Below are positions 3,950 to 64,000 of a stretch of 64,000 bases of DNA, in pieces. The notes beneath the pieces were generated by a model, which searched no databases, was not told the DNA's origin, and saw only the letters and a program-made list of their open reading frames with translations. Position 1 is the first letter of the stretch, and each line of letters begins with the position of its first letter. A program made the position numbers and the translations under genes. This DNA comes from an uncultured Bacilli bacterium (GTDB lineage: Bacteria; Bacillota_I; Bacilli_A; RF39; UBA660), in NCBI GenBank assembly GCA_947632115.1, contig CANROB010000006.1, forward strand, positions 3,844 to 67,843, given 5' to 3'.

Positions 3950-4153
3950 AGTTTTAATTGACGAGGAACAATATCAGTAGTTTTAAAGTTGGAAAAAAGA
4001 GATCTAGTGGTGGATGAAAACTAGACAAGGCTTTAAAATGAAATACCAATTGGGAGTCAAATCGTAAATCGCGTTAAGATAAAAGTGCATAAAATATTAT
4101 GAAATAGGATGGTACCGCGGGAAAACTCGTTCCTATACTCATAATATTTTTTT
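3950..4153 (+). promoter_or_regulatory. T-box leader (tRNA-sensing riboswitch) with intrinsic terminator, probably Tyr-specific
   Basis: Conserved T-box sequence AAUAGGAUGGUACCGCGGG at 4103-4121. A long terminator helix pairs 4091-4109 (AAAATATTATGA + ATAGGA) with 4131-4150 (TCCTAT..TCATAATATTTT), followed by a T-run to 4153. An AGAGA element lies near 4007. A UAC triplet at 4044-4046 sits where the specifier is expected. The UGGU bulge is compatible with an A73 tRNA. Confidence 0.75.
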
Positions 4154-4183
4154 ATGGAAAGAAATAAAAAAATAGGAGGATTT

Positions 4184-4864: not shown

Positions 4865-4865
4865 T

Positions 4866-6089: not shown

Positions 6090-6110
6090 AGCTCTAAAAG
6101 AGCTTTTTTT
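6089..6110 (+). terminator. Rho-independent terminator of deoC-tyrS
   Basis: AAGCTCT-aaa-AGAGCTT hairpin followed by T7. Confidence 0.7.
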
Positions 6111-6126
6111 AGTGCTAAAATGGGTC

Positions 6127-6151
6127 AAAAAAAAGGAATTTTAAATTCCTT
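6127..6151 (-). terminator. Rho-independent terminator of rpsD
   Basis: On the minus strand, an AAGGAATTT/AAATTCCTT hairpin followed by T8, directly after the rpsD stop. Confidence 0.7.
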
Positions 6152-6754
6152 TTATCTGTTGTAGTATTCAACGATTAATGATTCATTAATATCAGCGTTA
6201 AGTTCGCTTCTTTCAGGGTATCTTACATAAGTACCACTCATTTTATTATCATCAAAAGTTACAAAATCTACACGTCTTGTTAAGGCTTCTAAAGAAGCTT
6301 TTACTACTTTTAATTCCTTAGAATTTTCTTTAAGAGCGATAACATCACCTGGCTTACAAGTGTAAGATGGGATATTAACATTCTTTCCGTTTACAGTAAC
6401 GTGGCCATGATTTACTAATTGTCTAGCGCCTTTTCTAGTAGTAGAAAGTCCCATACGATAGCAAACGTTATCTAGACGACTCTCTAATAACTTAAGAAGG
6501 TTCTCACCATGTACACCTTTCATCTTACCAGCAAGAAGGAATGTTTTGTGGAATTGTTTCTCATTTAGTCCATACATAAATCTAACTTTTTGTTTTTCTT
6601 GTAATTGAACACCATAGTCAGATAATTTCTTTCCACGTTTATTTCCGTGTTGTCCTGGAGCATAAGGCTTTCTTCCTAATTCTTCTCCTGTTTCAAGAAT
6701 AGAAAATCCTAAACGACGTGATTTACGGTAACTAGAATCTGTGTATCTTGACAT
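6152..6754 (-). CDS. rpsD: 30S ribosomal protein S4
   Basis: [18 protein letters not shown]...[10 protein letters not shown]...S4 RNA-binding domain. The canonical MSRYT start at 6754 is preferred to the track start at 6760. Confidence 0.95.
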
Positions 6755-13232: not shown

Positions 13233-13269
13233 ACTACTTTTTTATGGTATAATGTAGTAGGAGGAATTT

Positions 13270-13995
13270 ATGAAAAAAATAAAATACTTAATCCTTTTTC
13301 TTTTTACTAGTTTTTTGATAACCGGATGTGGGAATACTAGCAAAGAAGAAGTGGAAACTGCTTTAAAAAATATGAAGGATTTAAAAAGTTCTACCGTTGA
13401 AGTAAAAACAGAAGTAGGAAGTAGTGAATATGCTATTACGACCCAAACAACGACAGATTTAATAAAAGGAGGAAATGTTTCTCATTCTACCACTAAAATG
13501 GATATTTATGGAACGATGATAGAATCTGAATCTTATACAGAAAAAGAGGGAGATACTTTATATACTTATACTTCTGATGATGGCGGAGTAACTTGGACCT
13601 ATACGGAAGAAGAGAGTAAGGATACTACAAGTGATATGGATTCTATTAATCGTTTAACGGAAAACTATAAATCGATTAAAAAAGTAAAATCTAATCGTTC
13701 GGGAGAAACAAAATATGAATTGACGATTGATAAATCTATCTTTAATGATGCTATTACTGAAAATGAAGAAGATCCTTTGGAATTAGAGAAAGATGTTATT
13801 CTTACTATCTATATTAAAAAAGGTTATATTACAACCATGGAAATGAATTTGTTAGATGTTGTAGATGCCATTAAAGAAGAAGGAATTTCCGTTTATAAGA
13901 TGACCTTTAATATTTCTAATCATAATCAAGTTGATGAAATTAAGGTTCCAGAAGAGATTAAGAAAAAGGCAACTTTAATGGAAGAGGAAGAATAA
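13270..13995 (+). CDS. Lipoprotein of unknown function
   Basis: Signal peptide with the lipobox LITGC. Thr/Glu-rich mature part. Confidence 0.65.
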   Translation: MKKIKYLILFLFTSFLITGCGNTSKEEVETALKNMKDLKSSTVEVKTEVGSSEYAITTQTTTDLIKGGNVSHSTTKMDIYGTMIESESYTEKEGDTLYTYTSDDGGVTWTYTEEESKDTTSDMDSINRLTENYKSIKKVKSNRSGETKYELTIDKSIFNDAITENEEDPLELEKDVILTIYIKKGYITTMEMNLLDVVDAIKEEGISVYKMTFNISNHNQVDEIKVPEEIKKKATLMEEEE

Positions 13996-17040: not shown

Positions 17041-17115
17041 AGGTTATTTTAATATCTTTTTTCTTTTTGGTACTTTTTTCTTACTTTCGCATACATTAAA
17101 GTGAGGAGTGATGAT

Positions 17116-17646
17116 ATGGCAGCCTATAAGGAGATTGTCACAAAAGCAATTATTGGAAAAGGAAAGAAAAGTTTTAAAGATAATTATGATTTAGAGGTAG
17201 AAGTAGAGCCATCAACAGTGCTTGGTTGTTGGGTCATTAACCATAAATTCAAAGGATATAAATCGGGAGATCAAGTAGGTGTATCTGGTAGTTATGATGT
17301 GAACATTTGGTATTCTTATGAGAATGATAGTAAAACGATGGTCGTAAATAAAAAAGTGGAATACAGTCATACTTTTAATGTTCGATTGAGAAACCAGGCA
17401 GACTTATCCGAGGATACCGATATCATTGTTAGACCATTATATCAACCAAATTGTTCTGATGTCCATATTGAGGGAAATAAGATTCATTTTACGGTAGAAA
17501 AAGAATTAGGAGTAGAAATTGTTGGAGAGACAAAGATGAAAATTGCGATAGAAGAGGATGAGGATCCTTGGGATGTAATTGAAGACGAGGTAAAAGAGGA
17601 AGATTTAAAAACAATTGATGAAGAAGTAAAAGAAGATTACTTATAG
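17116..17646 (+). CDS. cotE: Outer spore coat morphogenetic protein CotE
   Basis: MAAYKEIVTKAIIGKGKK...VLGCWVINHKF...VNIWYSY...QPNC...VVGETK plus an acidic C-terminal tail, collinear with my memory of B. subtilis CotE. GAGGAG RBS at 17103-17108. Confidence 0.85.
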   Translation: MAAYKEIVTKAIIGKGKKSFKDNYDLEVEVEPSTVLGCWVINHKFKGYKSGDQVGVSGSYDVNIWYSYENDSKTMVVNKKVEYSHTFNVRLRNQADLSEDTDIIVRPLYQPNCSDVHIEGNKIHFTVEKELGVEIVGETKMKIAIEEDEDPWDVIEDEVKEEDLKTIDEEVKEDYL

Positions 17647-32181: not shown

Positions 32182-34044
32182 ATGGTATTTAAGTGTAAGA
32201 TGTGTGGGGGAGATATTGAACTAGTAGAGGGTACAAATACGGGTAAGTGTTTGTATTGTAAAAGCACAATGACTCTACCTACTGTAGAGGATGAAAGAAT
32301 TCTAAACTTATACAATCGAGCAAATGATTTACGACTAGAAAATGAGTTTGATAAAGCTTATGCAACGTATGAATCTATTTTGGAGTTAGATAATGAACAA
32401 GTAGAGGCTCATTGGGGATTAATCTTATGTAAATATGGAGTAGAGTATGTAGATGACCCTAAGACTAAAAAGAAAATTCCTACTTGCCATAGGACCAATT
32501 ATGAATCTATTTTCGATGATGTTCATTACAAAGTAGTAAAAGAAAAATCTTATGGCGAAGCTTTGAAACTCTATGAAAAAGAAGCGAAAAAGATTCAAGA
32601 TATTCAAAAAGGAATTCTAGAGATTTCCTCTAAGGAAGAGCCTTATGATATCTTTATCTGTTATAAGGAGACGGATAATAATGGAGAAAGAACCCATGAT
32701 AGCGTTATGGCAGAAGATATCTATGAAGCCTTAACAAAAGAAGGGTATAAAGTTTTCTTCTCTAGAATTACCCTAGAAGATAAATTAGGAACAGAATACG
32801 AACCTTATATCTTCTCTGCTTTAAATAGTGCGAAAGTGATGTTGGTTGTTGGAACATCTTCTGAAAACTTAGAGGCAGTATGGGTAAAAAATGAGTGGAG
32901 TCGTTATTTAGACTTTATGAAAAAGGATAAATCGAAAACGCTTATTCCTGTTTATAGTAAAATGGATGCTTATAAACTTCCAGAAAGTTTTGCGATGTTG
33001 CAAGCTCAAAATATGGATAAAGTAGGGGCAATGCAAGATCTTGTTCGTGGTATTAAAAAGATTATGAATGCCAAAAAAGAAACTAAATCATCCAATGTCA
33101 CGGAAGAGATGTATCACCAGTTTAAAGAGCGTATGGAAGATGAAGAAAGCTCTGTGATTGGAAATGAAAAGCGATATGCTACCAATGTTTTAAAGGAAAA
33201 AATAGGAAAAGGGTTTATTGGAATTACTTTATTAGTATCTTTCCTAATGGCAATTTGGATGGCAGGATTTTTAGCTTCCTATACAATATCTAATTCAGTA
33301 GGATCCTTCCGATATAGTGACGTTTTGGCATATACTTTTCGGGAGAGGGCTAGTCTCATTCAGATAACTGTTGGATTTATTACTTTAATTTCCTTTTTTA
33401 TAGGGCTTTTATCTAGAAAGATGAATAAGGTATCTAAAATTTTATATCTCGTTAATTTTGCTTTAGAAGGTTATTTTTTATTTTTGATTCATTCTTGTGG
33501 ATTTAAGTCAAGTGCTTACATTTTGATTTTAGTTGGTCTTAATTTAATTTTATTCTTATTAAGACCAAGATGGCAGTTATCGACTAATATGTTGATGTTG
33601 AATAAGAAGAATAAGGAAATGCAAGAAGAGAAAAATAGAAAGTTAAAAGAAAAATTTGTCGAAAAAGAAAAGTTTGCCATTCACCCTATATTTTATGGAG
33701 TAGCATTCATTCTACTACTCTTCATTGGCTTTCAGTTAATAAGACCTGTTCCTATTCAATCCAATAAGAGAAATTCAAAGATAGATCAGATTAAAGTTCT
33801 TGAACAAATGGATTTATATGAAAATACACAAGATAGTTGGAGACATTCCGTAGCTACTTTATTTCCTGGAGAAATTTATGATGTGATTAGTACACGTATT
33901 GACGAGGATGGGTATCAACGGTCAATAGAAATTCAAACGAGTTTAGGAGTTCATGGCTATATCGCATCTCAATATAGTTCCTGTGTTAACGGAGAATGTG
34001 AGTATAGTGATGACCGTTTTCAAATTTTACCTAAAGAAGAGTAA
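32182..34044 (+). CDS. Zn-ribbon / TIR domain / 5-TM / C-terminal SH3b-like membrane protein (paralog 1)
   Basis: CKMCGG...CLYCKS ribbon. TIR-like core at residues ~155-290: YDIFICYKETD, KVFFSR, VMLVVGTSS, WVKNEWSRYL. Five hydrophobic helices between residues ~345 and 525. The C-terminal IYDVIS...GVHGYIASQY is SH3b-like. Confidence 0.8.
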   Translation: MVFKCKMCGGDIELVEGTNTGKCLYCKSTMTLPTVEDERILNLYNRANDLRLENEFDKAYATYESILELDNEQVEAHWGLILCKYGVEYVDDPKTKKKIPTCHRTNYESIFDDVHYKVVKEKSYGEALKLYEKEAKKIQDIQKGILEISSKEEPYDIFICYKETDNNGERTHDSVMAEDIYEALTKEGYKVFFSRITLEDKLGTEYEPYIFSALNSAKVMLVVGTSSENLEAVWVKNEWSRYLDFMKKDKSKTLIPVYSKMDAYKLPESFAMLQAQNMDKVGAMQDLVRGIKKIMNAKKETKSSNVTEEMYHQFKERMEDEESSVIGNEKRYATNVLKEKIGKGFIGITLLVSFLMAIWMAGFLASYTISNSVGSFRYSDVLAYTFRERASLIQITVGFITLISFFIGLLSRKMNKVSKILYLVNFALEGYFLFLIHSCGFKSSAYILILVGLNLILFLLRPRWQLSTNMLMLNKKNKEMQEEKNRKLKEKFVEKEKFAIHPIFYGVAFILLLFIGFQLIRPVPIQSNKRNSKIDQIKVLEQMDLYENTQDSWRHSVATLFPGEIYDVISTRIDEDGYQRSIEIQTSLGVHGYIASQYSSCVNGECEYSDDRFQILPKEE

Positions 34045-34056
34045 GAGGAGTAGTTT

Positions 34057-36150
34057 ATGATATTGAAGTGTAAGATGTGTGGGGGAGATATTGAACCGAT
34101 AGAAGGAACGAATACCGGTAAGTGTATCTACTGTAAAAGTGTTATGACACTTCCCTCATTAGAAGATGAAAAAATAGTAAATTTATATAATCGTGCGAAT
34201 AAATTGCGATTAGATAATGAGTTTGATAAAGCTTATGAAATCTATGAATCCATTTTAAAAATGGATGAAGAACAAGTAGAAGCCCACTGGGGATTAGTCC
34301 TTTGTAAGTATGGAATTGAATATGTAGATGATCCTAGAACTAAGAAAAAAGTACCTACTTGTCATCGTGCCAATTATGAATCTGTTTTAGTCAATTCTGA
34401 TTATCTTTTTGTTAAAGAACATTCTTATGGTGAGGCATTAAAGTTATATGAAGAAGAAGCTAAATATATTCAAAAGGTTCAAAAAAGAATCTTAGATATT
34501 TCATCCAAAGAAGAACCTTATGATATCTTTATCTGTTATAAGGAAACTGATAGTGATGGAGAAAGAACAAAAGATAGTGTGCTTGCGCAAGATATTTATC
34601 AGGCTTTAACAAAAGAAGGATATAAGGTTTTCTTTTCAAGAATTACCTTAGAAGATAAACTAGGAACAGAATATGAACCTTATATCTTCTCAGCTTTAAA
34701 TAGTGCGAAAGTAATGTTGGTGGTTGGAACGTCTTCTGAAAATTTAGAGGCAGTGTGGGTAAAAAATGAGTGGAGCCGTTACTTAAGCTTCATGAAAGAG
34801 GATACTTCTAAATCTTTAGTACCTGTTTATAGTAACATGGATGCTTATGAACTTCCTGAGGCATTTTCAATGTTACAAGCCCAAAATATGGATAAAGTAG
34901 GGGCAATGCAGGACCTTGTTCGTGGTATCGAAAAGTTGATGTCTTCTACCAAAACAAAGAAGAAACAGTCTTTAGATAAGAAGACAACAAAGCAAGTTCA
35001 AGAAGTATTAGAAGGAATCACTAGTTTAGGAAATAATCGATATGAGGTTACGATTGTAAAGGAAAAAAGAGCGACTTGGTATTATGTTTTTGTTATCGTA
35101 GTAGTTTCTATTTTCTTGTTTAATAGTTTGCTTGCTGTAGCTGGAGGAAATGGCGGATTTTCCATTGGACTTTCAGATACTCAGGAAATGTTATTCAATA
35201 TTTTAGTTGGAAGTAGGAGTTTAAATTACGTTTCTGATGGATTAGTAGCTTTACAATTTTTAATTTGTGTTACGATGGTTGTTTCCGGATTCCTTAAGAT
35301 GCGTACGCGTAAACTAGTTCGTATCTCTAATTATGTAATGCTTGGTACTTTTCTTTTAGAATTTATTTTAATAGAAATTTCTATGAAATACTTCGCTATC
35401 CCTTGTATCCTTTATTGGTTTACGGTTTCTTTATCTTTTATTCTCTTTTTGGTCAATCCTTCTTGGAATCTAGATACTAGTACGAAAACGATTGTTGAAG
35501 GAGAAGAAAAAGACAAATTATTAGTAAAAAATAAAGCGATTCGGGAGAATTTTACGAAAAAAGATAAATTTCCTCTTCTAAAAAAGTGCTTTATTCTTGG
35601 AATGGTGTTGTGTATTGTTATTTATGGAGGGACATTCTTCCATACGATTTTATCTAAATATGGAAATGCTCGTGATGAATCTAAGGCCCAGATGGAAATT
35701 GTTTCTTCCTATATGGCTGTAAGAGATGACTATAATCAGGTCGTAGGAATTGCGAAAAAAGGGGAAATTTATACGATTTTATCCATTTCCTATGATCGCT
35801 CTGAGTCATGTTTTGAAATCGAACAAAGTAATCACGTGAAAGGAACTATTTGTGGAAGTGCAGCAAGCTTTAAAATGTTAGCTGGACAGGGAAATGAAAG
35901 AGATACCTCTTTAAGACAATTAGAGGTTACTTATGATTTTATTCGCATTCGAGGAGAAAGTTCTATTTATGGCGATATTTTAGGACAGGTTTCTGAAGGA
36001 GAAATTTATACGATTTTAGAAGATAAAAAACAGTATGATGGAACACACTGGTATAAAATTAAAACAAATTATGGTTTAACAGGATATATTTATTCTGGAG
36101 ATGATGGTGAGTATGTAAAAGTATTAGAGCCAGAGAAAGGAGAAAAGTAA
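34057..36150 (+). CDS. Zn-ribbon / TIR domain / 5-TM / two C-terminal SH3b-like modules (paralog 2)
   Basis: Same N-terminal ~300 aa as paralog 1, including an identical 56-aa stretch. Divergent TM block. The C-terminus has two SH3b-like units (GEIYTILS...VKGTICGS and GEIYTILE...GLTGYIYS). Confidence 0.8.
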   Translation: MILKCKMCGGDIEPIEGTNTGKCIYCKSVMTLPSLEDEKIVNLYNRANKLRLDNEFDKAYEIYESILKMDEEQVEAHWGLVLCKYGIEYVDDPRTKKKVPTCHRANYESVLVNSDYLFVKEHSYGEALKLYEEEAKYIQKVQKRILDISSKEEPYDIFICYKETDSDGERTKDSVLAQDIYQALTKEGYKVFFSRITLEDKLGTEYEPYIFSALNSAKVMLVVGTSSENLEAVWVKNEWSRYLSFMKEDTSKSLVPVYSNMDAYELPEAFSMLQAQNMDKVGAMQDLVRGIEKLMSSTKTKKKQSLDKKTTKQVQEVLEGITSLGNNRYEVTIVKEKRATWYYVFVIVVVSIFLFNSLLAVAGGNGGFSIGLSDTQEMLFNILVGSRSLNYVSDGLVALQFLICVTMVVSGFLKMRTRKLVRISNYVMLGTFLLEFILIEISMKYFAIPCILYWFTVSLSFILFLVNPSWNLDTSTKTIVEGEEKDKLLVKNKAIRENFTKKDKFPLLKKCFILGMVLCIVIYGGTFFHTILSKYGNARDESKAQMEIVSSYMAVRDDYNQVVGIAKKGEIYTILSISYDRSESCFEIEQSNHVKGTICGSAASFKMLAGQGNERDTSLRQLEVTYDFIRIRGESSIYGDILGQVSEGEIYTILEDKKQYDGTHWYKIKTNYGLTGYIYSGDDGEYVKVLEPEKGEK

Positions 36151-36151
36151 T

Positions 36152-37294
36152 ATGGCATTATTCGAGGTAATCAAAAAAGAAAAAGATGATGATAATTTTA
36201 TATGGCGATATCCCAATACAAAATTTAATACGAGTTCACAATTAATTGTTCATGAAGGACAAGAAGCTATCTTTTTTAGCAATGGAAAAGCATTAGATTT
36301 ATTTGGACCTGGTAAATATACGCTAGAGACTAATAACATTCCTTTGCTTCGAAAAGTAATCGAGATTCCAACTGGTGGAAAAAGTCCTTTCCAATGTGAA
36401 GTATACTTTGTGGATAAAGTGGAAAAATCTATGCGTTGGGGAACGAAGAGTCGGTTAGAGTTTTTAGAGCCAAAATATCAATTTCCAATTTCTATTGGAG
36501 CCTGTGGCGAGATGCGTTTTATCATTGAAGATTCTAGAAAAATCTTGTTAAAACTAGTTGGTGTGAAAAAACAATTAGATAGTGAAAATATCGATGATTT
36601 CTTTGAGTCACAAATTTTAATGAAAGTTAAAAATTACATGGCTCAAATTATTACCGAAGAGAAGATTAGTATTTTTGAAATTGATCAACAACTAGAAAAG
36701 TTTAGTGAAGAACTAAAGAAAAAACTAGAAGCTGATTTCCAAGAGTTTGGAATTAAATTAAATAAATTCTTTGTCACAACGATTGCGAAACCAGAAGATG
36801 ATAAACGCTATCTAGAATTTAAAGAATTATACTTTAAACAATCCGTTGCTCTAGCAGAGGCTGAATTAAAGCAAAAGTTAGAGTTGATTGAGGAAGATAC
36901 AAAAGCGAAAAAGGTAGTGATGTCTTCTCAAGCGGAAGCTACGAAACGGAGTCAAGAAGGTTATACTTATCAAGAAGAGAAAGCTTATCAGATAGGTCAA
37001 AAAGTAGCGGAAAATCAAGCAGTTGGTCAATTTACTAATGTGGGTGTTGGCCTTGGAATGATTAGTGGCATGGGAGGAACCATCAGCAATCAAGTTAGTA
37101 AAGAAGTAACGGGTGCTTTTGCAACTCTTAACAATGTCGTTTGTCCAAATTGTCACAAGGAATTAGAAAAAGATACTGCTTTTTGTAAATATTGTGGTAC
37201 GAAGATTGTGACCGAAAAATATTGTGGAAAATGTGGAGCAAGCCTTTCAGCAGATGCTGCCTTTTGTTCTCACTGTGGGGAAAGGATAGGTTAA
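36152..37294 (+). CDS. SPFH/Band-7 domain protein with two C-terminal zinc ribbons (COG4260, YdjI-like)
   Basis: MALFEVIKKE...FIWRYP...LIVHEGQEAIFF.NGK N-terminus, typical of the YdjI/virion-core-like SPFH family. A coiled-coil follows, then CPNCHKE..CKYCG and CGKCGAS..CSHCG. The start is 1 nt after the upstream stop. Confidence 0.75.
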   Translation: MALFEVIKKEKDDDNFIWRYPNTKFNTSSQLIVHEGQEAIFFSNGKALDLFGPGKYTLETNNIPLLRKVIEIPTGGKSPFQCEVYFVDKVEKSMRWGTKSRLEFLEPKYQFPISIGACGEMRFIIEDSRKILLKLVGVKKQLDSENIDDFFESQILMKVKNYMAQIITEEKISIFEIDQQLEKFSEELKKKLEADFQEFGIKLNKFFVTTIAKPEDDKRYLEFKELYFKQSVALAEAELKQKLELIEEDTKAKKVVMSSQAEATKRSQEGYTYQEEKAYQIGQKVAENQAVGQFTNVGVGLGMISGMGGTISNQVSKEVTGAFATLNNVVCPNCHKELEKDTAFCKYCGTKIVTEKYCGKCGASLSADAAFCSHCGERIG

Positions 37295-56681: not shown

Positions 56682-56692
56682 AATGGATTCCA

Positions 56693-56766
56693 TGGAGCAG
56701 ATAGCGAGAATCGAACTCGTAACTTAAGCTTGGGAAGCTTATATTTTGCCATTAAACTATATCTGC
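56693..56766 (-). tRNA. tRNA-Gly (anticodon CCC)
   Basis: The 74-nt reverse complement GCAGATATAGTTTAATGGCAAAATATAAGCTTCCCAAGCTTAAGTTACGAGTTCGATTCTCGCTATCTGCTCCA folds by hand. It has a 7-bp acceptor stem, a D-arm with GG, the anticodon loop TTCCCAA, the T-loop TTCGATT, discriminator U and an encoded CCA. Confidence 0.85.
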
Positions 56767-56850
56767 ATTCATTTTTCTGATGAAAAAGTCTAATAATAAT
56801 ATACCATTATTTTGATATTTGTTAAATAGCAAATTGATATTTTTGTAATT
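56693..56850. repeat. Direct repeat copy A (tRNA plus 84 nt of its 5' flank)
   Basis: Near-identical to 57499-57652. Weaker similarity extends left through the terminator (56658-56692 versus 57463-57498). Confidence 0.85.
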
Positions 56851-56941: not shown

Positions 56942-57382
56942 TTGGTTCACAATGTTCCATATGTTTCGGAAAAAGCAACGTTTTGTGGTAAAATTCTTAT
57001 TAGAAATGGATGTGTTGATGTGAATAACAGACTTAAAACTTGGCATTTTGGAATTGATAACGATGAATTAGTAAACTTAGTATTATCTGACAAAAAAACG
57101 GCGACAACTTCATTGTATGATGTAGATGATATTCCCGTTGTAGGTGACGAATCAATACTAATTTTTGATAATGGAAAACATGCTTGTGTAACTGAAACAA
57201 AAAAAGTAATAATAACTGAATTTAAAAATATTAGTGAAGAACTATCTATGTTGGAAGGGGAAGGAACTTACGAAGAATGGAAAAAGTCTCATATCGAATA
57301 TTTTAAAACTATAAATCCAAACTTTAATGATAATACAAAAGTAATATTTGAAATATTTGAGGTAAAAGAAAAATTTTGTTGA
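56942..57382 (+). CDS. ASCH (PUA-like) domain protein
   Basis: TWHFGIDNDELVNLVLSDKKTATTS...MLEGEGTYEEWKKSHIEYF matches the COG4405-type ASCH pattern. There is no in-frame ATG near the N-terminus, so a TTG start at 56942 is assumed, and no clear RBS. Confidence 0.6.
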   Translation: MVHNVPYVSEKATFCGKILIRNGCVDVNNRLKTWHFGIDNDELVNLVLSDKKTATTSLYDVDDIPVVGDESILIFDNGKHACVTETKKVIITEFKNISEELSMLEGEGTYEEWKKSHIEYFKTINPNFNDNTKVIFEIFEVKEKFC

Positions 57383-57498
57383 ATGTTGTTTAGATATTAC
57401 CGATAAAAATAAAAAATATTATCAATGTATTCGACCATTTTTCGATTTTATCTTTTGGTATAAAAAAATCGGACTAAAAAGTTCGACTAAAATACAAA

Positions 57499-57571
57499 TG
57501 GAGAAGATAGCGAGAATCGAACTCGTAACTTAAGCTTGGAAGCTTATATTTTGCTATTAAACTATATCTGT
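57499..57571 (-). pseudogene. Decayed copy of tRNA-Gly(CCC)
   Basis: 73 nt. Relative to copy A it has a 1-nt deletion in the anticodon loop (TTCCAA, 6 nt), loss of the D-loop GG (AATAGCA), and substitutions on both strands of the acceptor stem (positions 1 and 69). Confidence 0.75.
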
Positions 57572-57652
57572 ATTCATTTTTCTGATGAAAAAGCCTAATA
57601 ATATACCATTATTTTGATATTTGTTAAATAGTAAATTGATGTTTTTGTAATT
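57499..57652. repeat. Direct repeat copy B
   Basis: Aligns to 56693-56850 with a handful of substitutions, the 1-nt anticodon-loop deletion and a 3-nt deletion (taataataat versus taataat). Confidence 0.85.
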
Positions 57653-57845: not shown

Positions 57846-58610
57846 ATGAGCGAAATGAACGGATTTGATAATGAATTTGCTTTCGTTTTAGCATTAAATA
57901 ATAAAACAATTAAAGAATTAACTCCTATATGTAGAGATTTAATAGAAACCATTTTTCCTGATGAAAATGAAAATTCAATCATAAAATGTTGGCTTAATCA
58001 TTTCAAACAAAAATCTGATATTTTCGTTAAAATAAATAATAAAACGAAAGGTATTAGTATTAAAAAGGGAATGAAAAATTCTGTCCATGTTGAACCGATT
58101 TCAGAATTTATTAGTTTTCTAATAAATAATCATATACCACGGGATAGTATAATAGAGTATTTAAAATTTCACTATGCCGATGGAACAACTAACGGTAAGG
58201 GATTAAAAAGAATATCTATGGAAGAATATAAAGTTCAAAACCAAGATAAAATTGATAAGATAAATAGAGAAATCAATAATGAACAATTATTAATAAAAGC
58301 TATTGATAGGTTTATCATCAAAGGGAATAATTCGCTTTTTCCCATCTCTGCCTTGATTTATGGGGAAGTAGATGACTTTATCTTTATAACGAAAGAAGAT
58401 ATTAGGAATATTATTCTAAGAAAAAAGGATGACTATTCATCCACTGTTCATTTTAGTGTGCTTACTGTCCAACCTAAAAATAGATGCTTAAATTATAATA
58501 CTAAATATGAGAAAGATAGGTTTTGTGTACAAGTAAAATGGTATAATCTTTTTGATGATATCATTGAAAATATGTATTTAAAGGAACAAAGTAAAAAGGA
58601 AGTATTCTAG
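57846..58610 (+). CDS. Putative type II restriction endonuclease, MspI/HinP1I-like fold, with no adjacent methyltransferase
   Basis: NGFDNEF..., KSDIFVKI...GISIKKG..NSVHVE (a D...S-x-K PD-(D/E)xK-like core) and C-terminal LTVQPK...VQVKW resemble, from memory, HinP1I blocks (DGFKNEK; SDINVQV...IQVKLVSN; VTIQRKG...LQFKI). AGAGGTGA RBS. Confidence 0.45.
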   Translation: MSEMNGFDNEFAFVLALNNKTIKELTPICRDLIETIFPDENENSIIKCWLNHFKQKSDIFVKINNKTKGISIKKGMKNSVHVEPISEFISFLINNHIPRDSIIEYLKFHYADGTTNGKGLKRISMEEYKVQNQDKIDKINREINNEQLLIKAIDRFIIKGNNSLFPISALIYGEVDDFIFITKEDIRNIILRKKDDYSSTVHFSVLTVQPKNRCLNYNTKYEKDRFCVQVKWYNLFDDIIENMYLKEQSKKEVF

Positions 58611-58679: not shown

Positions 58680-58697
58680 TGGAGCGGGTGATGGGAG
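58680..58697 (-). other. 18-nt 3'-terminal fragment of a tRNA-Gly (…CTCCCATCACCCGCTCCA): putative attL core of the prophage
   Basis: The reverse complement ends in TCACCCGCTCCA, which matches the acceptor/CCA end of Firmicute tRNA-Gly(UCC) as I remember it. Similarity to a tRNA stops abruptly at 58698. Confidence 0.6.
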
Positions 58698-58727
58698 TAA
58701 TCACCTATAATAATCTAGAAAGGATAA

Positions 58728-58901
58728 ATGTACTTTGTAGCTTATGATTTATATGATAATATAGTTGCTTATTTTGATGATCTTGATGAATTATCTTCTT
58801 TCGTTAGACGTAGAAAAAAACAACTTAAGTATAAATTTAAAACGCAAAATGTAGTAATTATTGAATCAAAACCCATTTTAAAAATTTACAAATTTTCATG
58901 A
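58728..58901 (+). CDS. Small phage ORF (57 aa, below the track threshold)
   Basis: Hand translation gives MYFVAYDLYDNIVAYFDDLDELSSFVRRRKKQLKYKFKTQNVVIIESKPILKIYKFS. GAAAGGA RBS. A terminator follows. Confidence 0.4.
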   Translation: MYFVAYDLYDNIVAYFDDLDELSSFVRRRKKQLKYKFKTQNVVIIESKPILKIYKFS

Positions 58902-58922
58902 GAGGTCACACCTCTCATTTTT
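58900..58922 (+). terminator. Rho-independent terminator
   Basis: GAGAGG-tcaca-CCTCTC followed by ATTTTT. Confidence 0.7.
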
Positions 58923-58958
58923 GTATGCTAGTATTTTTTATAAGAAAGGAGTTTAAGT

Positions 58959-59261
58959 ATGGAAGAGAAAATTAGTGTAAAAGTTTTAAGCGGATGGCAA
59001 AGTACTAAAAAGAATTGCTGTGGAATTACTTATTTGCTAGCAGGAATTCAAGATGCCGAAAATCGCAAAGGTTTAGAGATATTAGAATGTTTTTATGAAG
59101 AAACTACAATTCCTTTTCAAAAACTTAAGGCTGATGATTTAGATAAGAAAGTTTTTTCTGCTATCGTTTCTTGGAAAGAAAATAAATTTGATCCTAGTAA
59201 AGCAGATAAATATATCGTAGGTCTTGCCGATGATAAAGGCGAAATTATTTGGTCTTTATAA
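58959..59261 (+). CDS. Phage protein, 100 aa, soluble; possible ssDNA-binding (gene V-like) role from position and size only
   Basis: AAGGAG RBS. No TM helix. It sits directly upstream of the coat-like gene. Confidence 0.5.
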   Translation: MEEKISVKVLSGWQSTKKNCCGITYLLAGIQDAENRKGLEILECFYEETTIPFQKLKADDLDKKVFSAIVSWKENKFDPSKADKYIVGLADDKGEIIWSL

Positions 59262-59284
59262 AATAAAAGAATAAAAAATTGTAT

Positions 59285-59333
59285 AAAACACATGCAACGA
59301 ATCACACCTTACCTTTCTTTCTGCATGTGTTTT
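59285..59333. repeat. Perfect 12-bp inverted repeat with a 25-nt loop
   Basis: AAAACACATGCA (59285-59296) pairs with TGCATGTGTTTT (59322-59333). Confidence 0.8.
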
Positions 59334-59358
59334 AGATAAATGAAAGGGGGTCCCTAGT

Positions 59359-59544
59359 GTGGAAAGTGAAGCTTTAACATTATCTGCGTATTTAGAGAAT
59401 GGATCTTCTGTTGTTACTTGGGTTATGAAACAAGCTACTACTATAGCGAATTTTATGACTAGTAATCCAGTTGCACTTACATTCTTAATTTTAGGAGTTA
59501 TCGCTATTGTAGTATCTATTACAAAGAGATTCTTCAGAGTTTAA
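59359..59544 (+). CDS. Candidate major coat protein
   Basis: 61 aa with an acidic N-terminus (ESEALTLSAYLENG), a hydrophobic helix (PVALTFLILGVIAIVVSI) and a basic C-terminus (TKRFFRV), the classic inovirus pVIII layout. GTG start after a GGGGGT RBS. Confidence 0.55.
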   Translation: MESEALTLSAYLENGSSVVTWVMKQATTIANFMTSNPVALTFLILGVIAIVVSITKRFFRV

Positions 59545-59609
59545 TTTGTAGAGAAAAAGAGATACTCAATATTTCTTTTTCTCTTCTTTTTTTATCGAGG
59601 TGCTTTTTT

Positions 59610-59807
59610 ATGGTTTATTTTATTTTAGGATTTTCTATAGCTTTGAATTTAATTTTTATAATTTTAGGAATATTTGTTATAAGATTTTATTTTTCACAAA
59701 AAACAAAGAATAATTCTATTGAAGATTTAATTGAAGGAGTAGGAAAAATTATGAAAGATGATTCGATTGTAGATGAAAATATGGCAAAGGATTTTTTTTA
59801 TAAATGA
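59610..59807 (+). CDS. Small phage membrane protein
   Basis: 65 aa with an N-terminal TM helix. Its stop overlaps the next start (ATGA). Confidence 0.45.
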   Translation: MVYFILGFSIALNLIFIILGIFVIRFYFSQKTKNNSIEDLIEGVGKIMKDDSIVDENMAKDFFYK

Positions 59808-61591
59808 TGTTATTTTATAAATTAAAAAGGTCTTGTCATTTTTTTATTAATAATTTTTTCTATTTTTTAGTTTTTATTCTAGGATTTTTTCTTGGTTTTA
59901 TTGGAAAGAATATTCTACCGCAAGTATTAGCTTTAGAAATGGATCCATCTAGTTGTGAATATGGTAGTAGAACTTGTTTTTCTATGCCTACTAGTGATTA
60001 TAGTCATATTCCATCTGCATATGGAACTCATCAAGTTTTAGAACGTTTAGAACTTATTAAAGAATTACTAGATGAATCTATTCCTGAGGGTTACGGTTAT
60101 ACAATTTATATGGTTTCTGCACTTAATGATTCGATGGATCATTTTTCTAGAGATTGGACTTCTTATCTTGGTGTTATTAAGTATAAAATTTCCGACTATT
60201 TACCTCGTTCTGAGTATGATGCTTTGTCTCTTGATGAGAGACATGGACATTTTACAATGTCTGTAATTGATTCTTATAGGACTGGTGATCAAGATTTTTT
60301 TGAATATTCTAATTTTTATTCTTATTCTACCAGTGTTAGTTCAAATCCGTCTTATACTGGTTGGTTTTTGACTACTTCGTTAGATCAATTTAAAGAGAAA
60401 GCTTTATCCAGTTTTTCTAATCTTCCTGATTGGAATTTTAAAAACAATTCAACTAGTAGTGGTGTTGGAACTAAATATTTAAGAAGTAATACTTATTTTG
60501 ATTTTTTCTTATATTATTCGTCTGTTGATATAGAGTATTATCATACGAATGATGATTCTCCTCACTTTTATTTTAATAATAAAATTTATGATACAGGTGA
60601 TTTATGGCCATCTTATTATGGTTTCGCAGAAGATAATAAGAGTTTTTTAGAAGATTTAACTTATACCTGTAGCATTAAACCGTTTATCTTATCCGAAAAG
60701 AATGATTCCGAATCGGACTATCAAAAAGTGGAGACTTATGGTTCTAATATATATTTTGATTATGATCTTCCAGATTCGGTTTGGCCATATTTATTTAATT
60801 TTTATAATTATTATCGAGCTAGTGATTATAAAGAACTTGTTTATGGATCTTATATGGATTCTTGGAATCCATTCCTGTGGTATAGTCAGCAGGATGATTC
60901 CGCTTCTCATATTTATAAAGTTCCTGTTACTTTATTGACTTTAGAGAGAAAGCAAGAATTCTTTTTAGGATTTTCTAGAGTTTGGGAATTACACGATGAA
61001 GATTATACTCAGTTGAAAGATTTTCAAGAATGGAAGCCGACTGTTCGTGATAAATATTTTTTAGCTTTTATAAAATATTTAGATGATGATTTTGATATGA
61101 GTTTAAGAGAATTTAATTCTATGCGTTATAACACTTTAGATTCGCTTTTGAAGTCGTATTATTCTTCTACTACTAATAATTTTGTAAATGCTTCTTATCA
61201 AGTTATTGATTCAACTATTAAGGCAGATTATTTAAAATTTTTATTGACTGTTTATAATGATGATAATTTTAAAGAAGAGATTTGCTTTTATTATGATGAA
61301 GATAATTTAACTTTGACTTATGCTGAATTTAGTGGTGCTGGCACTCTTCAAGGTTGTGCATGGACTAATGGTCAATATCAATGTTTTGAAACGGATATTG
61401 ATTTCTATACTTCATATGATCTTAATAATTTTTCTATTTTTGATGAATTACGAGATGCTTTATCTTATTTATCAAGTTTAGTTGATTCTATTTGGAATGC
61501 TCTACCTGAGTTTATGAAGTTAACTTTTATTACTATTTTTGTTATTACAATAATTTTTATCATATTAAGGATGGTAGGTTGGTATGGATAG
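59804..61591 (+). CDS. pIII-like minor coat / adsorption protein candidate
   Basis: 595 aa. N-terminal signal-like helix ending QVLA-LE and a C-terminal anchor (LTFITIFVITIIFIILRMVGW). The body is rich in aromatic, Asp and Ser residues. It is the largest gene of the module and sits after the coat gene, as in Ff phages. Confidence 0.6.
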   Translation: MMLFYKLKRSCHFFINNFFYFLVFILGFFLGFIGKNILPQVLALEMDPSSCEYGSRTCFSMPTSDYSHIPSAYGTHQVLERLELIKELLDESIPEGYGYTIYMVSALNDSMDHFSRDWTSYLGVIKYKISDYLPRSEYDALSLDERHGHFTMSVIDSYRTGDQDFFEYSNFYSYSTSVSSNPSYTGWFLTTSLDQFKEKALSSFSNLPDWNFKNNSTSSGVGTKYLRSNTYFDFFLYYSSVDIEYYHTNDDSPHFYFNNKIYDTGDLWPSYYGFAEDNKSFLEDLTYTCSIKPFILSEKNDSESDYQKVETYGSNIYFDYDLPDSVWPYLFNFYNYYRASDYKELVYGSYMDSWNPFLWYSQQDDSASHIYKVPVTLLTLERKQEFFLGFSRVWELHDEDYTQLKDFQEWKPTVRDKYFLAFIKYLDDDFDMSLREFNSMRYNTLDSLLKSYYSSTTNNFVNASYQVIDSTIKADYLKFLLTVYNDDNFKEEICFYYDEDNLTLTYAEFSGAGTLQGCAWTNGQYQCFETDIDFYTSYDLNNFSIFDELRDALSYLSSLVDSIWNALPEFMKLTFITIFVITIIFIILRMVGWYG

Positions 61592-61796
61592 TTTTTCTAC
61601 AGTTATCGAGAGTGTAAAGACATTATTTGAATTAATTGTTGATTCGATTAGTAATTTTGTTGATTTTGCTTCGAATATATTTACTACAATTCAATCTTTG
61701 TTCTTTATATTTCCATATGAGGTTCGACCTATTTTAGTATCTTTTTTATCGATTGCAGTTTTTTATTTAATTTATAAATTGATTCGAGGTGCTTAG
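61584..61796 (+). CDS. Small phage membrane protein (pVI-like position)
   Basis: 70 aa with two hydrophobic segments. It overlaps the upstream gene by 8 nt. Confidence 0.5.
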   Translation: MDSFSTVIESVKTLFELIVDSISNFVDFASNIFTTIQSLFFIFPYEVRPILVSFLSIAVFYLIYKLIRGA

Positions 61797-62069
61797 ATGT
61801 TTCTTTCTTGTTTTAAATTTATTTGTTCAATTATTGGTGAATGGTTAGATTTTTTGTTTACCATAACTTTGGATTCTTCTACTAGTGTTACATGGGGAAT
61901 GTTATTTATAGCTATTGTTTTTGTAATTGTTTGTTTGAAACTTTTATTTGAAGGTATTTACAATGCTACTGGTGAAGATGATTACGGACTTAAGTATATT
62001 CCAAAGCATTCTTATAGGCCTAAGCATGAGAAAGACGTTTATTCTCCTCGTAATTATGGAAGGAAGTAG
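61797..62069 (+). CDS. Small phage membrane protein
   Basis: 90 aa with a TM helix (MLFIAIVFVIVCLKLLF) and a basic C-terminus. It starts the nucleotide after the upstream stop. Confidence 0.5.
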   Translation: MFLSCFKFICSIIGEWLDFLFTITLDSSTSVTWGMLFIAIVFVIVCLKLLFEGIYNATGEDDYGLKYIPKHSYRPKHEKDVYSPRNYGRK

Positions 62070-62073
62070 TTTT

Positions 62074-62304
62074 ATGGATAAATTAATGTTAGAAAGACTT
62101 CTTACTTTTGAAAAGTTAGAAAGTTATAATCCTTTAGAAGTTTATAATACTGTAAAGTTTTCCGGTGTTTTATCCGGAGAACAATTGTCAGTTTATGCTC
62201 CAGATTTTAGAAATTTTTATGAATTAGGAAAATTTTATAATGTAGAATTGATTGAGCATGATCTTTATGGAAATTTTTTGGATATTCAAGAGGTGATTAA
62301 TTAA
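62074..62304 (+). CDS. Small phage protein (76 aa, soluble)
   Basis: The ATG at 62074 follows a GGAAGGAAG RBS. The track ORF 61948-62304 is the same frame over-extended into the previous gene. Confidence 0.45.
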   Translation: MDKLMLERLLTFEKLESYNPLEVYNTVKFSGVLSGEQLSVYAPDFRNFYELGKFYNVELIEHDLYGNFLDIQEVIN

Positions 62305-62459
62305 TGGAAACATATTATGAGATGGCTCAGCAGTTATTTGGTAGTGTTCCTGTTGGTTGTGAATTTATTTATTTGATACTTGCTTTTTTCCTTTTTTTAG
62401 CATCTATTTTTATTATTGTTTTTCCAGCTATATTCGTATTTAAGTTGGTGAGCAAATGA
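62304..62459 (+). CDS. Small phage membrane protein (51 aa, below the track threshold)
   Basis: Hand translation gives METYYEMAQQLFGSVPVGCEFIYLILAFFLFLASIFIIVFPAIFVFKLVSK. TAATG overlap upstream and ATGA overlap downstream. Confidence 0.4.
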   Translation: METYYEMAQQLFGSVPVGCEFIYLILAFFLFLASIFIIVFPAIFVFKLVSK

Positions 62460-62674
62460 AAAATGTAAGTTTTGTTCCTTTTCTTATTAGTATTGATCAA
62501 TTTAAAGTTATTTTAGATGAAGTTATTTCTTTAAGCAGTTTAGATTTGGTTTATTCTAATGATGTGTTATTGATTTTATATTTTATTTATTTAGGGATGT
62601 TTTTGTTTTGCGTTGTTACATTTATAAGATTTGTTTATAAGTTTATAGTTATATTTTTAGATAAGGTGATTTAA
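62456..62674 (+). CDS. Small phage membrane protein
   Basis: 72 aa with a TM helix (LLILYFIYLGMFLFCVVTFIRFV). Confidence 0.45.
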   Translation: MKNVSFVPFLISIDQFKVILDEVISLSSLDLVYSNDVLLILYFIYLGMFLFCVVTFIRFVYKFIVIFLDKVI

Positions 62675-62854
62675 TTGAATAGAAATATTAAAAGAATTTG
62701 TATTGAAGTTATGAAAGATTTAGATATTATTCCGACTGATTCATTAATTAGAGATTTTAGAAGAACACTAGATTTTAAAACGTTTTATAGTGATAAGGTT
62801 ATTAGAGCCATGGCTAGATGTTATTTTTCGAGGTTAGTAGAAGATGAGTCTTAA
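62675..62854 (+). CDS. Small phage ORF (59 aa, TTG start, below the track threshold)
   Basis: AAGGTGA Shine-Dalgarno 5 nt upstream of the TTG at 62675. It translates to (M)NRNIKRICIEVMKDLDIIPTDSLIRDFRRTLDFKTFYSDKVIRAMARCYFSRLVEDES and overlaps the Zot-like gene by 11 nt. Confidence 0.35.
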   Translation: MNRNIKRICIEVMKDLDIIPTDSLIRDFRRTLDFKTFYSDKVIRAMARCYFSRLVEDES

Positions 62855-63644
62855 GTCTTTATGCGGTATTCCTGGATGTGGAAAGACATTTAGTCTTACT
62901 TATTTAGCTGTTAAGCATTATAAAAGGCAGAATTCATTCTTTTATTGTATGCGTAGAAAATTAAAAGGCCAACCTTGGCATGTAAATAATGTATATACTA
63001 GCTATCCAGTTCTTTTAGATAAAAAGAAGAAGATTTATAGTAGAAAGATTCATATTGATGATTTAAAAAATCAATGGTCGTTTGAGTCTCACGCATTTAT
63101 GGGATTTGATGAACCACAACTTGATTATGATTCTATTTCTGATACGTTTTTATTTCCTCGTGCTATTGGTATGACCTTACAAGCTCATAGGCATTTTGGT
63201 ATTGATGATATAGTATTCGCAACTCAACACCCGAACCGTTTGATCGTGTATGAAAAAAATATTATGAATGAATATTATAAAATCATGAAGAAAATTAAGT
63301 TTCCATTTTTACCTTGGGGAATAATTTTTATGCGTAAATGTTATGAAATAGAAGATTATACCTATATTACGACTAGATCTAAGACTAAAAGGCAAGAATG
63401 TTCTATTAGTAGATCTATTAAATTCTTTAATTTTAAAAAGATAGGTAGTAGTTATGATTCTACTTATTTGCGTCCTTTAAATATAGATAAACCTAAATTG
63501 GATAAAGGAACTTATAATTCTTTGATTATGCCTAAAGATACATGCGCTATTTTAAATCAAAAATTTCTAGATCATCAAGATGGTGAAAAAGTTGGAAAAA
63601 AATCGAAAAAAACAGAACCTACAACTTTTGCGCGAGCGTTTTAG
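62844..63644 (+). CDS. Zot / pI-like P-loop assembly ATPase
   Basis: Walker A at the extreme N-terminus (LCGIPGCGKTFS) and Walker B FMGFDEPQ. Its position after the small membrane-protein genes fits inovirus gene I. Confidence 0.65.
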   Translation: MSLKSLCGIPGCGKTFSLTYLAVKHYKRQNSFFYCMRRKLKGQPWHVNNVYTSYPVLLDKKKKIYSRKIHIDDLKNQWSFESHAFMGFDEPQLDYDSISDTFLFPRAIGMTLQAHRHFGIDDIVFATQHPNRLIVYEKNIMNEYYKIMKKIKFPFLPWGIIFMRKCYEIEDYTYITTRSKTKRQECSISRSIKFFNFKKIGSSYDSTYLRPLNIDKPKLDKGTYNSLIMPKDTCAILNQKFLDHQDGEKVGKKSKKTEPTTFARAF

Positions 63645-63692
63645 CGCCGCGCATAAAGTTGTATTGGTACCCCCCATACTAATAGGGGGGTA
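63629..63692. other. Two GC-rich hairpins between the zot-like and rep genes (candidate origin, packaging signal or terminator)
   Basis: The first is TGCGCG-a-GCG-ttttag-CGC-CGCGCA (63629-63653). The second is TACCCCCC-atactaata-GGGGGGTA (63668-63692). Both are striking in this AT-rich sequence. Confidence 0.7.
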
Positions 63693-63719
63693 ATAAATAC
63701 ATAAAAAGAGGTGTTTCGC

Positions 63720-64000
63720 TTGGAAAAACAAGACCAAACTCGATATTTACTCCTAGATTGGTTCCAATTCACTATTTTGGACGATGTAGACGAGCTACAT
63801 TTACATCAATTTATCTTTAATTTAGTTACTGAATTTTTTGGTATTAAGCAAGAAGATCTTACGCTTGTTCAATCTGGCTTGAATGGTTATAAAATGCATT
63901 ATGAATTTCGAAATATTGAAATACATTTTCATCCGGCATATTTAAATAAAGGAATTAATTTTTTATTACGTGGTCAAGGATGTCGTGATTTTGAAGATTT
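63720..64000 (+). CDS. Rolling-circle replication initiator, Rep_trans family (RstA-like); N-terminal part only
   Basis: TTG start 6 nt after an AGAGGTG Shine-Dalgarno. The translation (M)EKQDQTRYLLLDWFQFTILD...GYKMHYEFRNIEIHFHP...GINFLLRGQGCRDFED matches the N-terminal blocks of Rep_trans (DW..FT; G...SGQGCR..E). Open to the window end. Confidence 0.7.
   Translation, partial: MEKQDQTRYLLLDWFQFTILDDVDELHLHQFIFNLVTEFFGIKQEDLTLVQSGLNGYKMHYEFRNIEIHFHPAYLNKGINFLLRGQGCRDFED

Follow-up and report, generated by a model that had tools for sequence, protein, structure and literature searches.

Introduction

Thousands of inovirus-like sequences were catalogued in 2019, among them lineages of monoderm hosts and elements with attachment (att) sites in tRNA genes (PMC6813254). 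The Zot/pI gene is the hallmark gene of the inoviruses, and the genes for replication and integration are those most exchanged (PMC6813254). The pI proteins typically carry a C-terminal transmembrane domain (TMD), and an atypical 30% carry an N-terminal one (Roux et al., PMC6813254). Inovirus prophages of Enterocloster and Hungatella, 6.5-8.5 kb long with direct repeats and a pI/Zot gene accompanied by 10-16 short open reading frames (ORFs), are secreted (Microbiome 2023, PMC10061712). Here we describe an element at the end of a stretch of 64,000 nucleotides (the window) from contig CANROB010000006.1 of an uncultured Bacilli bacterium. The region 58680-64000 of the window is very probably the left junction, with about the first 5.3 kb, of an inovirus-like prophage (Tubulavirales) integrated into the genome of a low-GC, spore-forming Firmicute.

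Related genomes are also known outside of any chromosome. The Dulem genomes were recovered by rolling-circle amplification from faecal homogenates that had been filtered, and terminal redundancy was the basis for calling them complete (PMC11281440). For the Rep_trans initiators of the pT181 family the nick site is in a loop, that of the conserved stem-loop ICRII, which has a specificity repeat beside it (PMC4797284, PMC5775427).

An earlier reading of the letters of the window (the original prediction) had proposed an inovirus prophage in this region, and the family of the ATPase, the synteny, the complete relatives and the left boundary all agree with it. Its statement that few Gram-positive inoviruses are characterised is out of date in view of the catalogue of 2019 (PMC6813254) and the secretion described for Enterocloster in 2023 (PMC10061712).

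The Zot/pI-like ATPase

The 266-aa P-loop protein of the element belongs to the Zot/pI family, as judged by the family profile, by a profile search of the PDB and by the predicted fold. Its Walker A motif, GIPGCGKT, is found at residues 8-15 and its Walker B motif, DE, at 89-90; both (G8-T15; D89 E90) are invariant in the alignment of a clade of 27 Zot proteins, which consists of 25 homologues from a set of 5.8 billion proteins and two virome proteins. Pfam Zot is matched by 18 of these 27 members (best 4.7e-10), and the ATPase itself matches PHROG 197 (Zot-like toxin) at 4e-4. The profile of the clade found 2r2a, the N-terminal domain of Neisseria Zot, in the PDB at 1e-5. A model made by AF2 on the clade alignment (pLDDT 80) consists of a compact soluble domain and a disordered tail. 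In Foldseek searches with this model 2r2a was the top match in the PDB, and in BFVD Inoviridae Zonular occludens toxin proteins took ranks 2, 5 and 8 (5e-9 to 4e-5); a protein of the Acholeplasma phage MV-L51 is also among the matches. The P-loop ATPase of Zot/pI type with a Walker A near residue 8, as originally proposed, is thus recovered, with 2r2a coming first both by profile and by fold. The clade is small and divergent: when 1.84 billion representatives were searched in full with HMMER, only 60 clusters (50% identity) came out at E <= 1e-3.

The TMD, a feature which is typical of pI proteins and not strictly defining for the family, is absent from the ATPase. The maximum Kyte-Doolittle hydropathy over 19 residues is 0.98, and it stays below 1.3 in 25 of the 27 clade members. 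One member, P0024, has an insertion of ~100 aa with hydrophobic helices. The two small membrane proteins encoded just before the ATPase, p51 and p72, are conserved at 60-76%, which is the level of Zot itself, and they are candidates for the membrane part of the assembly machine. It is conceivable, although we would rather doubt it than count on it, that the whole clade works with an anchor-less pI ATPase and that the membrane half of the extrusion machine is encoded separately by p51 and p72, giving a split, secretin-free machine. If true, such a machine would be organised unlike both the C-terminal-TMD and the N-terminal-TMD pI types described so far. The anchor-less ATPase with its conserved small membrane neighbours offers a concrete handle on how a filament that has no secretin passes through one membrane and a thick wall.

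Related elements, synteny and module exchange

Every protein of the window was compared by tblastn with the related loci that we fetched. The same gene order, p57, p61, p595, p70, p90, p51, p72 and Zot, is found in L008, the closest relative, and in L009-L013. A scan of metagenomes with the clade alignment gave 59 more loci, many of them from human-gut assemblies. Complete prophages are present in nine of the fetched related loci; they are 7.8-9.0 kb long, have all genes on one strand and are flanked by direct repeats of 17-22 bp. The right repeat is the 3' end of an intact tRNA gene on the minus strand (Arg-TCT, Gly-GCC, Gly-TCC, His or Glu), and the gene adjoining this tRNA codes for a Pfam Phage_integrase protein of about 300-324 aa. 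Both the integrase and the intact tRNA are present in L009, L032, L033, L035-L038 and L049.

The Rep protein is of Rep_trans, Rep_OBD/RepB or Rep_1 type across the clade, and the swaps of Rep and of the integration genes agree with the exchange published for inovirus genes (PMC6813254). In the more distant relatives L057, L060, L065, L066, L068 and L069, which have a Rep of Rep_trans type, a gene of ~350-384 codons and no tyrosine integrase is found downstream of Rep. The proteins carry HTH_28, mostly also HTH_32, and those of L057 and L066 have a weak match to rve_3, which suggests an integration module of transposase type. Within one structural lineage the replication module has been exchanged among three unrelated families of rolling-circle initiators and the integration module apparently between tyrosine integrases and rve-type transposases, and at least five tRNAs serve as targets.

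Cargo genes of the relatives lie between Zot or Rep and the integrase; in L038 the cargo is an N6_N4 DNA methyltransferase (5867-6604). Just past the last small gene of L013 (7166-7259) ARAGORN reports a 94-nt "tRNA-Stop (tta)" whose variable arm is long; it could be a suppressor-like or a degenerate tRNA at the boundary of the element. L013 (7.7 kb) was considered as a circular genome and dropped, as its ends do not overlap.

The left boundary

The left end of the element is a stub of 17 nt which corresponds to the last 17 nt of a tRNA-Gly, with one mismatch to the tRNA-Gly(TCC) of L066. It occurs once in the window, where 0.02 chance matches are expected. The start at 58698 given by the original prediction falls exactly after this stub (58680-58696). 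Immediately 3' of the stub, in the direction of the tRNA, is a stem-loop with a T-run on the minus strand. It is placed where the terminator of a tRNA gene would be expected, and we take it for the terminator that originally belonged to the targeted tRNA-Gly gene and stayed behind at attL. The arrangement of hairpin and stub recurs at the attL of L009 and L008. The element of L008 has the identical 17-mer at its left end, although both the hairpin before it and the host flank are different there, the flank being unrelated, and the homology between the window and L008 begins at the stub, which agrees with the proposal that the left edge is derived from a tRNA-Gly. The canonical att arrangement of inoviruses consists of repeats in direct orientation, 10 bp or longer, that are placed inside a tRNA or beside an integrase, or else of a circular contig (Roux et al. 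2019); the window contains one copy, and the nine related loci contain the complete feature.

Extent, gene packing and composition

The part of the element inside the window contains the attL stub with its terminator, 12 complete genes on the plus strand, two GC-rich hairpins and the first 93 codons of Rep. It would make up approximately the left two-thirds of the prophage, and the full element is, by analogy with the relatives, expected to be ~8-11 kb. Both the size of the element and its recombinase are predictions because the rest of Rep, any recombinase and attR lie past the edge of the window.

In the ORF listing all called genes from 58728 to the window edge are on the plus strand, and they are tightly packed. 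The overlaps noted earlier, ATGA at 59804 and 62456, TAATG at 62304, 8 nt at 61584 and 11 nt at 62844, are all exact in the sequence; an overlap of 14 nt at 62056 was missing from that list. Ribosome-binding sites (RBSs) and translational coupling are kept across the visible genes. Nine of the 13 genes code for proteins of less than 100 aa, and a Pfam or PHROG assignment was obtained for Zot and Rep only. A Kyte-Doolittle scan finds a transmembrane (TM) helix in six of these nine small proteins (p61, p65, p70, p90, p51 and p72, 51-90 aa), in agreement with the short single-TM proteins (30-90 aa) that surround pI in inoviruses (Roux et al. 2019). This corrects the earlier count of seven out of ten, the soluble 100-aa protein being exactly 100 aa.

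The orientation of the genes is uninformative for the element because 37 of the 41 large host ORFs upstream are likewise on the plus strand, and we have dropped it as evidence. The GC content is also that of the host (26-30%). The distinctive marks of the region are the size of its genes, their overlaps and a switch in AT skew, which drops at ~59250 from about +0.05 to between -0.15 and -0.30.

Beyond the fetched loci, a scan of species-representative genomes gave a single match, on a 4.1-kb contig of a metagenome-assembled genome, at 56% identity. Scans of IMG/VR with a protein query and with the clade alignment found nothing, no homologue of the 93-aa Rep fragment was found in the 5.8-billion-protein set, and an exact 30-mer of the window end is absent from the metagenome contigs. 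Independent metagenome assemblies of the same element (L001, L005, L006) break inside the prophage, one contig stopping at ~63675 within the C6/G6 hairpin, so that assembly may be disrupted at this point by the hairpin or by a change in coverage.

The putative origin and the Rep protein

The two GC-rich hairpins between the ATPase and Rep, at 63630-63652 and 63667-63691, were foreseen by the original prediction. They fold as DNA at -21.6 kcal/mol (z = -4.84), and none of 200 shuffled sequences did as well. The first of them is a candidate for a terminator, a packaging signal or a minus-strand origin; L008 has a different hairpin at this place. The second is composite and has the loop ATACTAATA. 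The motif C5-6...TACTAATA...G6 is found between Zot and Rep in L002, L008 (with one change in the loop), L044, L059, L063 and L064, and all of these have a Rep of Rep_trans type except L044, the contig of which ends before Rep. None of the examined loci with Rep_OBD or Rep_1 has the motif. Covariation is seen in the outer stem (GTATT/AATAC vs GTCATT/AATGAC), and the window and L008 share 84% identity over 57 nt of this region, compared to 72-74% for the flanking coding DNA. We read hairpin 2 as a putative double-strand origin, probably with the nick site for Rep in the loop, because such loops are where the initiators of the pT181 family (Rep_trans) cut.

The Rep fragment matches Pfam Rol_Rep_N (E 3.7e-10) and is 47% identical to the Rep of L008, which has both Rol_Rep_N and Rep_trans; from this homologue we infer that the catalytic Rep_trans domain, with the active-site tyrosine, would follow past the edge of the window. 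The original assignment as a Rep_trans rolling-circle initiator is therefore upheld inside the window for Rol_Rep_N, and the Rep_trans domain comes in only through L008.

The structural and small genes

The features of the element are collected in Table 1. The first gene after the att site, p57, has homologues at the same position in L003, L004, L008, L009, L033 and L035-L037 and no match in Pfam or PHROG; it is possibly a regulator or a recombination directionality factor. The next gene product, p100, is from its position a candidate for a single-stranded DNA (ssDNA)-binding, pV-like protein. It has homologues only in L008 (43%) and in P0026 (92%), no family match in Pfam or PHROG, no PDB match and none from PADLOC, and the AF2 model made from the single sequence is unusable (pLDDT 37).

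The size of p61, its single helix and its basic tail make it a candidate for the major coat protein. The pVIII-like layout proposed for it earlier is present in full, with the acidic N-terminus, the helix and the basic end. It is conserved in L008, L009 and L013 (54-75%) and can be aligned to the equivalent gene product of L033, L037 and Dulem virus 59, with TLS...P-TM-KRFFR as the common pattern. The hairpin directly after p61 parallels the terminator which the Ff phages have after gene VIII. The following p65 is a candidate minor coat or assembly protein.

The signal-like helix and the C-terminal anchor expected of the 595-aa protein were both found as hydrophobic segments, and a possible cleavage site, VLA/LE, follows the signal-like N-terminus. 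Full-length homologues at the same position in L013, L009, L010 and L008 are 28-34% identical, and the last 50 aa are 48% identical. Apart from this C-terminus p595 is the least conserved protein of the set, and it has no match in 50,697 phage records, the PDB, Pfam or the PHROGs. A variable body with a conserved C-terminus fits what is expected of a receptor-binding end protein, and p595 is a candidate pIII-like adsorption or end-cap protein. The accessory gene p82 is specific to the present element: tblastn found no counterpart in the relatives, and PADLOC gave nothing for it.

Table 1. Features of the inovirus-like element and its left junction, in coordinates of the window
Feature	Position	Strand	Properties
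Host-side stem-loop	58643..58665	-	Arms ACTAGTCC...GGACTAGT; A-run on plus strand (T-run on minus strand); immediately 3' of the tRNA stub
attL core	58680..58696	-	17 nt, 3' end of tRNA-Gly; plus strand TGGAGCGGGTGATGGGA, reverse complement TCCCATCACCCGCTCCA
p57	58728..58901	+	Small soluble basic protein; first gene after att; clade-wide
Terminator-like hairpin	58898-58918		3' of p57
p100	58959..59261	+	Soluble, 100 aa, no TM
p61	59359..59544	+	61 aa; acidic N-terminus, one hydrophobic helix (32-61, Kyte-Doolittle), KRFFRV tail; strong RBS AAAGGGGG
Terminator-like hairpin	59550..59584	+	15-bp stem, T-rich tail; directly 3' of p61
p65	59610..59807	+	Small membrane protein, N-terminal TM (1-30); ATGA overlap with p595
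p595	59804..61591	+	N-terminal signal-like helix (11-41), C-terminal hydrophobic anchor (566-595)
p70	61584..61796	+	Small membrane protein, C-terminal TM; homologues in L008, L009, L013 (34-42%)
p90	61797..62069	+	Small membrane protein, TM 26-58; homologues at 41-54%
p82	62056..62304	+	Soluble 82-aa accessory protein, no TM; called in metagenome copies L001, L006
p51	62304..62459	+	Small membrane protein, TM 11-51; 62-76% identity to relatives
p72	62456..62674	+	Small membrane protein, TM 34-69; 60-63% identity to relatives
p59	62675..62854	+	Small soluble protein; overlaps Zot start by 11 nt; not conserved in relatives
Zot/pI-like ATPase	62844..63644	+	266 aa, P-loop, no transmembrane segment
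Hairpin 1	63630..63652	+	GC-rich; overlaps Zot stop codon
Hairpin 2 (composite)	63661..63700	+	Outer stem GTATT/AATAC; inner C6/G6 TACCCCCC-ATACTAATA-GGGGGGTA; 29 nt upstream of Rep start
Rep, 5' end (93 codons)	63720..64000	+	Runs off the window; RBS AGAGGTG, TTG start

Weighing the alternatives

A number of observations weigh against an inovirus prophage. The score of the ATPase alone against Pfam Zot is 18.7 bits, just below the gathering score of 20.3; the HMM check which the original prediction had proposed is thus borderline for the protein itself and positive for the 18 clade members mentioned above. The TM-scores of the Foldseek matches are low (0.29-0.49) and indicate a resemblance at the level of the family, no match being close. 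The roles of p61, p595 and p100 are deduced from size, topology and position, not from homology to characterised proteins. Neither a second att copy nor a recombinase nor the catalytic domain of Rep lies within the window, and the metagenome contigs that match Zot, p595 and p100 exactly are short, none of them reaching past ~63675. No attP junction contig of the element was seen, the metagenome copies L006 and L007 being in the integrated state. L008 has no integrase within 3 kb of Rep and no second att copy in its contig; in place of the integrase it has a gene (12596-13567) for an HTH/MqsA-like protein with a SocA_Panacea domain, of antitoxin type. The type of recombinase of the present element is uncertain because L008 has no integrase and the distant relatives have the HTH/rve-like gene.

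Some of these points would also be expected of a defective or truncated remnant of an inovirus, whose right end (the catalytic domain of Rep, the recombinase and attR) has been lost or rearranged, and which neither excises nor forms particles. The single att copy in the window, the similar lack of a visible integrase and second att copy in L008, the integrated state of the metagenome copies and an earlier rearrangement nearby, the duplication of a tRNA-Gly(CCC) with one degenerate copy, are in favour of it. We nevertheless find a remnant unlikely: all 12 complete genes are intact and of full length compared to their homologues, and they keep their RBSs and their translational coupling. The hairpin of the origin is likewise intact, and conserved, Rep continues as an open frame up to the window edge, and the source contig of 69,253 bp leaves room for the missing 2.5-5 kb.

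The replication proteins of the clade lend themselves to other interpretations. In an integrative mobilisable or conjugative element (IME or ICE) the Rep_trans protein would be a relaxase of MOBT type and the P-loop protein would couple as an ATPase, with a minimal transfer apparatus made of the membrane proteins. Relaxases of the Rep_trans family occur in elements of the ICESt3/Tn916/ICEBs1 type in Firmicutes (PMC9371924, PMC6499999), and integration into tRNA genes is typical also of ICEs and IMEs. The ATPase, however, matches Zot/pI and not the families of the FtsK/TcpA/VirD4 type, and no Pfam match to coupling-protein or type IV secretion system (T4SS) families (FtsK, TcpA, TraG, VirD4-type, VirB4) was found among the 13 proteins of the element. 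In the complete relatives, which at 7.8-9.0 kb would have no space for them, VirB4-like and other conjugation genes are absent, relatives replace Rep_trans by Rep_OBD or Rep_1 and keep the structural module, and some are found as circles of 5.3-7.1 kb in virus preparations. With the Zot/pI ATPase and the complete relatives lacking conjugation genes, an ICE or IME, which the original prediction had named as the case in which its reading would fail, is rejected as extremely improbable. In an integrated rolling-circle plasmid the membrane proteins would be unrelated cargo and the likeness to a phage a coincidence. Rep_trans, Rep_OBD and Rep_1 are classic families of plasmid initiators, and the origin hairpin is plasmid-like as well; against this, it is the supposed cargo that is conserved across the clade and Rep that is exchangeable, and Zot/pI is the inovirus hallmark gene (PMC6813254). 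A search of 72,556 plasmids gave no match, which argues against an ICE or IME and a plasmid alike. The plasmid is rejected on the conserved cargo, the Zot/pI hallmark and the lack of plasmid matches, and has a very small probability.

A possible life cycle

For the inovirus prophage which we prefer, the following cycle can be proposed. A site-specific recombinase encoded past the window, a tyrosine integrase in most relatives, would excise the element between the two tRNA-derived core copies. The Rep_trans initiator would nick the plus strand within ATACTAATA, the loop of the C6/G6 hairpin, and drive rolling-circle synthesis of ssDNA. A small soluble protein, possibly p100, could then take charge of the ssDNA and would give way at the membrane to the p61 coat, with its acidic N-terminus outside and KRFFRV on the DNA, the Zot-like ATPase would power extrusion, and the ends of the filament would be built from p595 and the small membrane proteins. 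The likeliest tethers of the anchor-less ATPase would be p51 and p72, encoded just upstream. A secretin, the lack of which the original prediction had raised as a question, would not be needed because there is no outer membrane.

The host and the neighbouring genes

The window contains host genes for CotE (17101-17646, Pfam 5.5e-50), EzrA, AddAB of Gram-positive type and HtpG. The host is, judging from these genes, a low-GC, spore-forming Firmicute, and the gene for CotE supports the spore-forming Gram-positive host proposed originally. A T-box leader at 3955-4137 (Rfam, 97.9 bits) is located upstream of a DeoC-like gene and tyrS (4154-6089).

At 32182-37294 two large proteins with a TIR_2 domain are encoded side by side; they are 620 and 697 aa long, and the longer, second one also has an SH3 domain. 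Next come a gene for an SPFH/Band-7 protein that contains zinc ribbons and two genes without annotation. The matches from PADLOC are all weak here (RT-TIR_XII and PDC-S66, about 3e-4), and the region may be an uncharacterised defence island.

Closer to the element a block of ~160 bp with a tRNA-Gly(CCC) and its upstream region is duplicated (56692-56850 and 57498-57652, 805 bp apart, 95-98% identity), and the copies flank a gene for an ASCH-domain protein (56942-57382). In the second tRNA copy one base of the anticodon loop is missing, and ARAGORN calls it tRNA-???. An older event at a tRNA, either an insertion or a duplication, may have left this scar. An ORF of 254 aa (57846-58610), located between attL and the degenerate tRNA, matches a Type II restriction-enzyme model of PADLOC (2.7e-14) and has no Pfam match; no methyltransferase gene is evident adjacent to it.

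Comparison with known systems

The module order of the element is, as the original prediction had it, the canonical one of Ff (M13/fd/f1) and CTXphi: Rep, a small soluble protein, coat protein with terminator, a large protein with signal and anchor, small membrane proteins, pI/Zot and an intergenic region with hairpins. Rolling-circle replication and an ATPase with an N-terminal Walker A are also common to these phages and the present element, and pI is the only protein with detectable sequence similarity. Unlike Ff, the element has no pIV secretin, as expected in a monoderm. The C-terminal part of pI, which spans the membrane and extends into the periplasm, has no equivalent in its ATPase, its Rep is of the pT181 (Rep_trans) type and not of the gpII type of Ff, and it is located at a tRNA, whereas the canonical Inoviridae use dif via XerCD.

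The replication module resembles that of the plasmids pT181 and pC221 (RepC/RepD, Rep_trans) in having Rol_Rep_N and, beside rep, a hairpin with a GC stem and an A/T-rich loop. The loop of pT181 is TACTCT/AATAG, which is near to ATACTAATAG of the present element; this is to be taken as a lead and not as a test. In contrast to the plasmids, the module serves a phage genome, and no specificity repeat like ICRIII was identified here.

The prophages of Enterocloster and Hungatella, which we compare from their published description only, are like the present element found in anaerobic, Gram-positive spore formers of the gut; the host here differs from theirs in having ~28% GC with EzrA and CotE. 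The collection of phages gave four weak-to-moderate matches to Zot, and the present element probably belongs to a different lineage because none of the four is from Enterocloster.

The closest free genomes are circular and deposited as "Inoviridae sp.": Dulem virus 59 (PP511793.1, 7,104 bp) from the faecal virome of lemurs and bajarodino virus 49 (PQ006130.1, 5,351 bp) from that of rodents. The ZOT protein of Dulem virus 59 is 39% identical to the ATPase of the window over 86% of the protein (E 8e-42). Both genomes have the architecture of the clade prophages closed into a circle, with the order Zot, Rep, integrase, attP, p57 homologue, small proteins and large protein on one strand. In both an attP that mimics the 3' end of a tRNA is placed between the integrase gene and the p57 homologue; in bajarodino virus 49 it consists of 28 nt of the T-arm and acceptor strand of a tRNA-Gly, after which comes the ribosome-binding region TCTAGAAAGG that the window has as well. 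They differ from the present element in having an initiator of Rep_OBD/RepB type instead of Rep_trans and a large structural protein without detectable similarity to p595, and they are free circles of 5.3-7.1 kb, whereas the present element is integrated.

Inovirus prophages are thus already known in gut Clostridia and as circular genomes of faecal viromes, and the present element adds a further one. Such elements having been published already, it leaves the current understanding unchanged. With its defined attL and its probable origin it is a well-delimited addition to the still small set of Gram-positive filamentous prophages.

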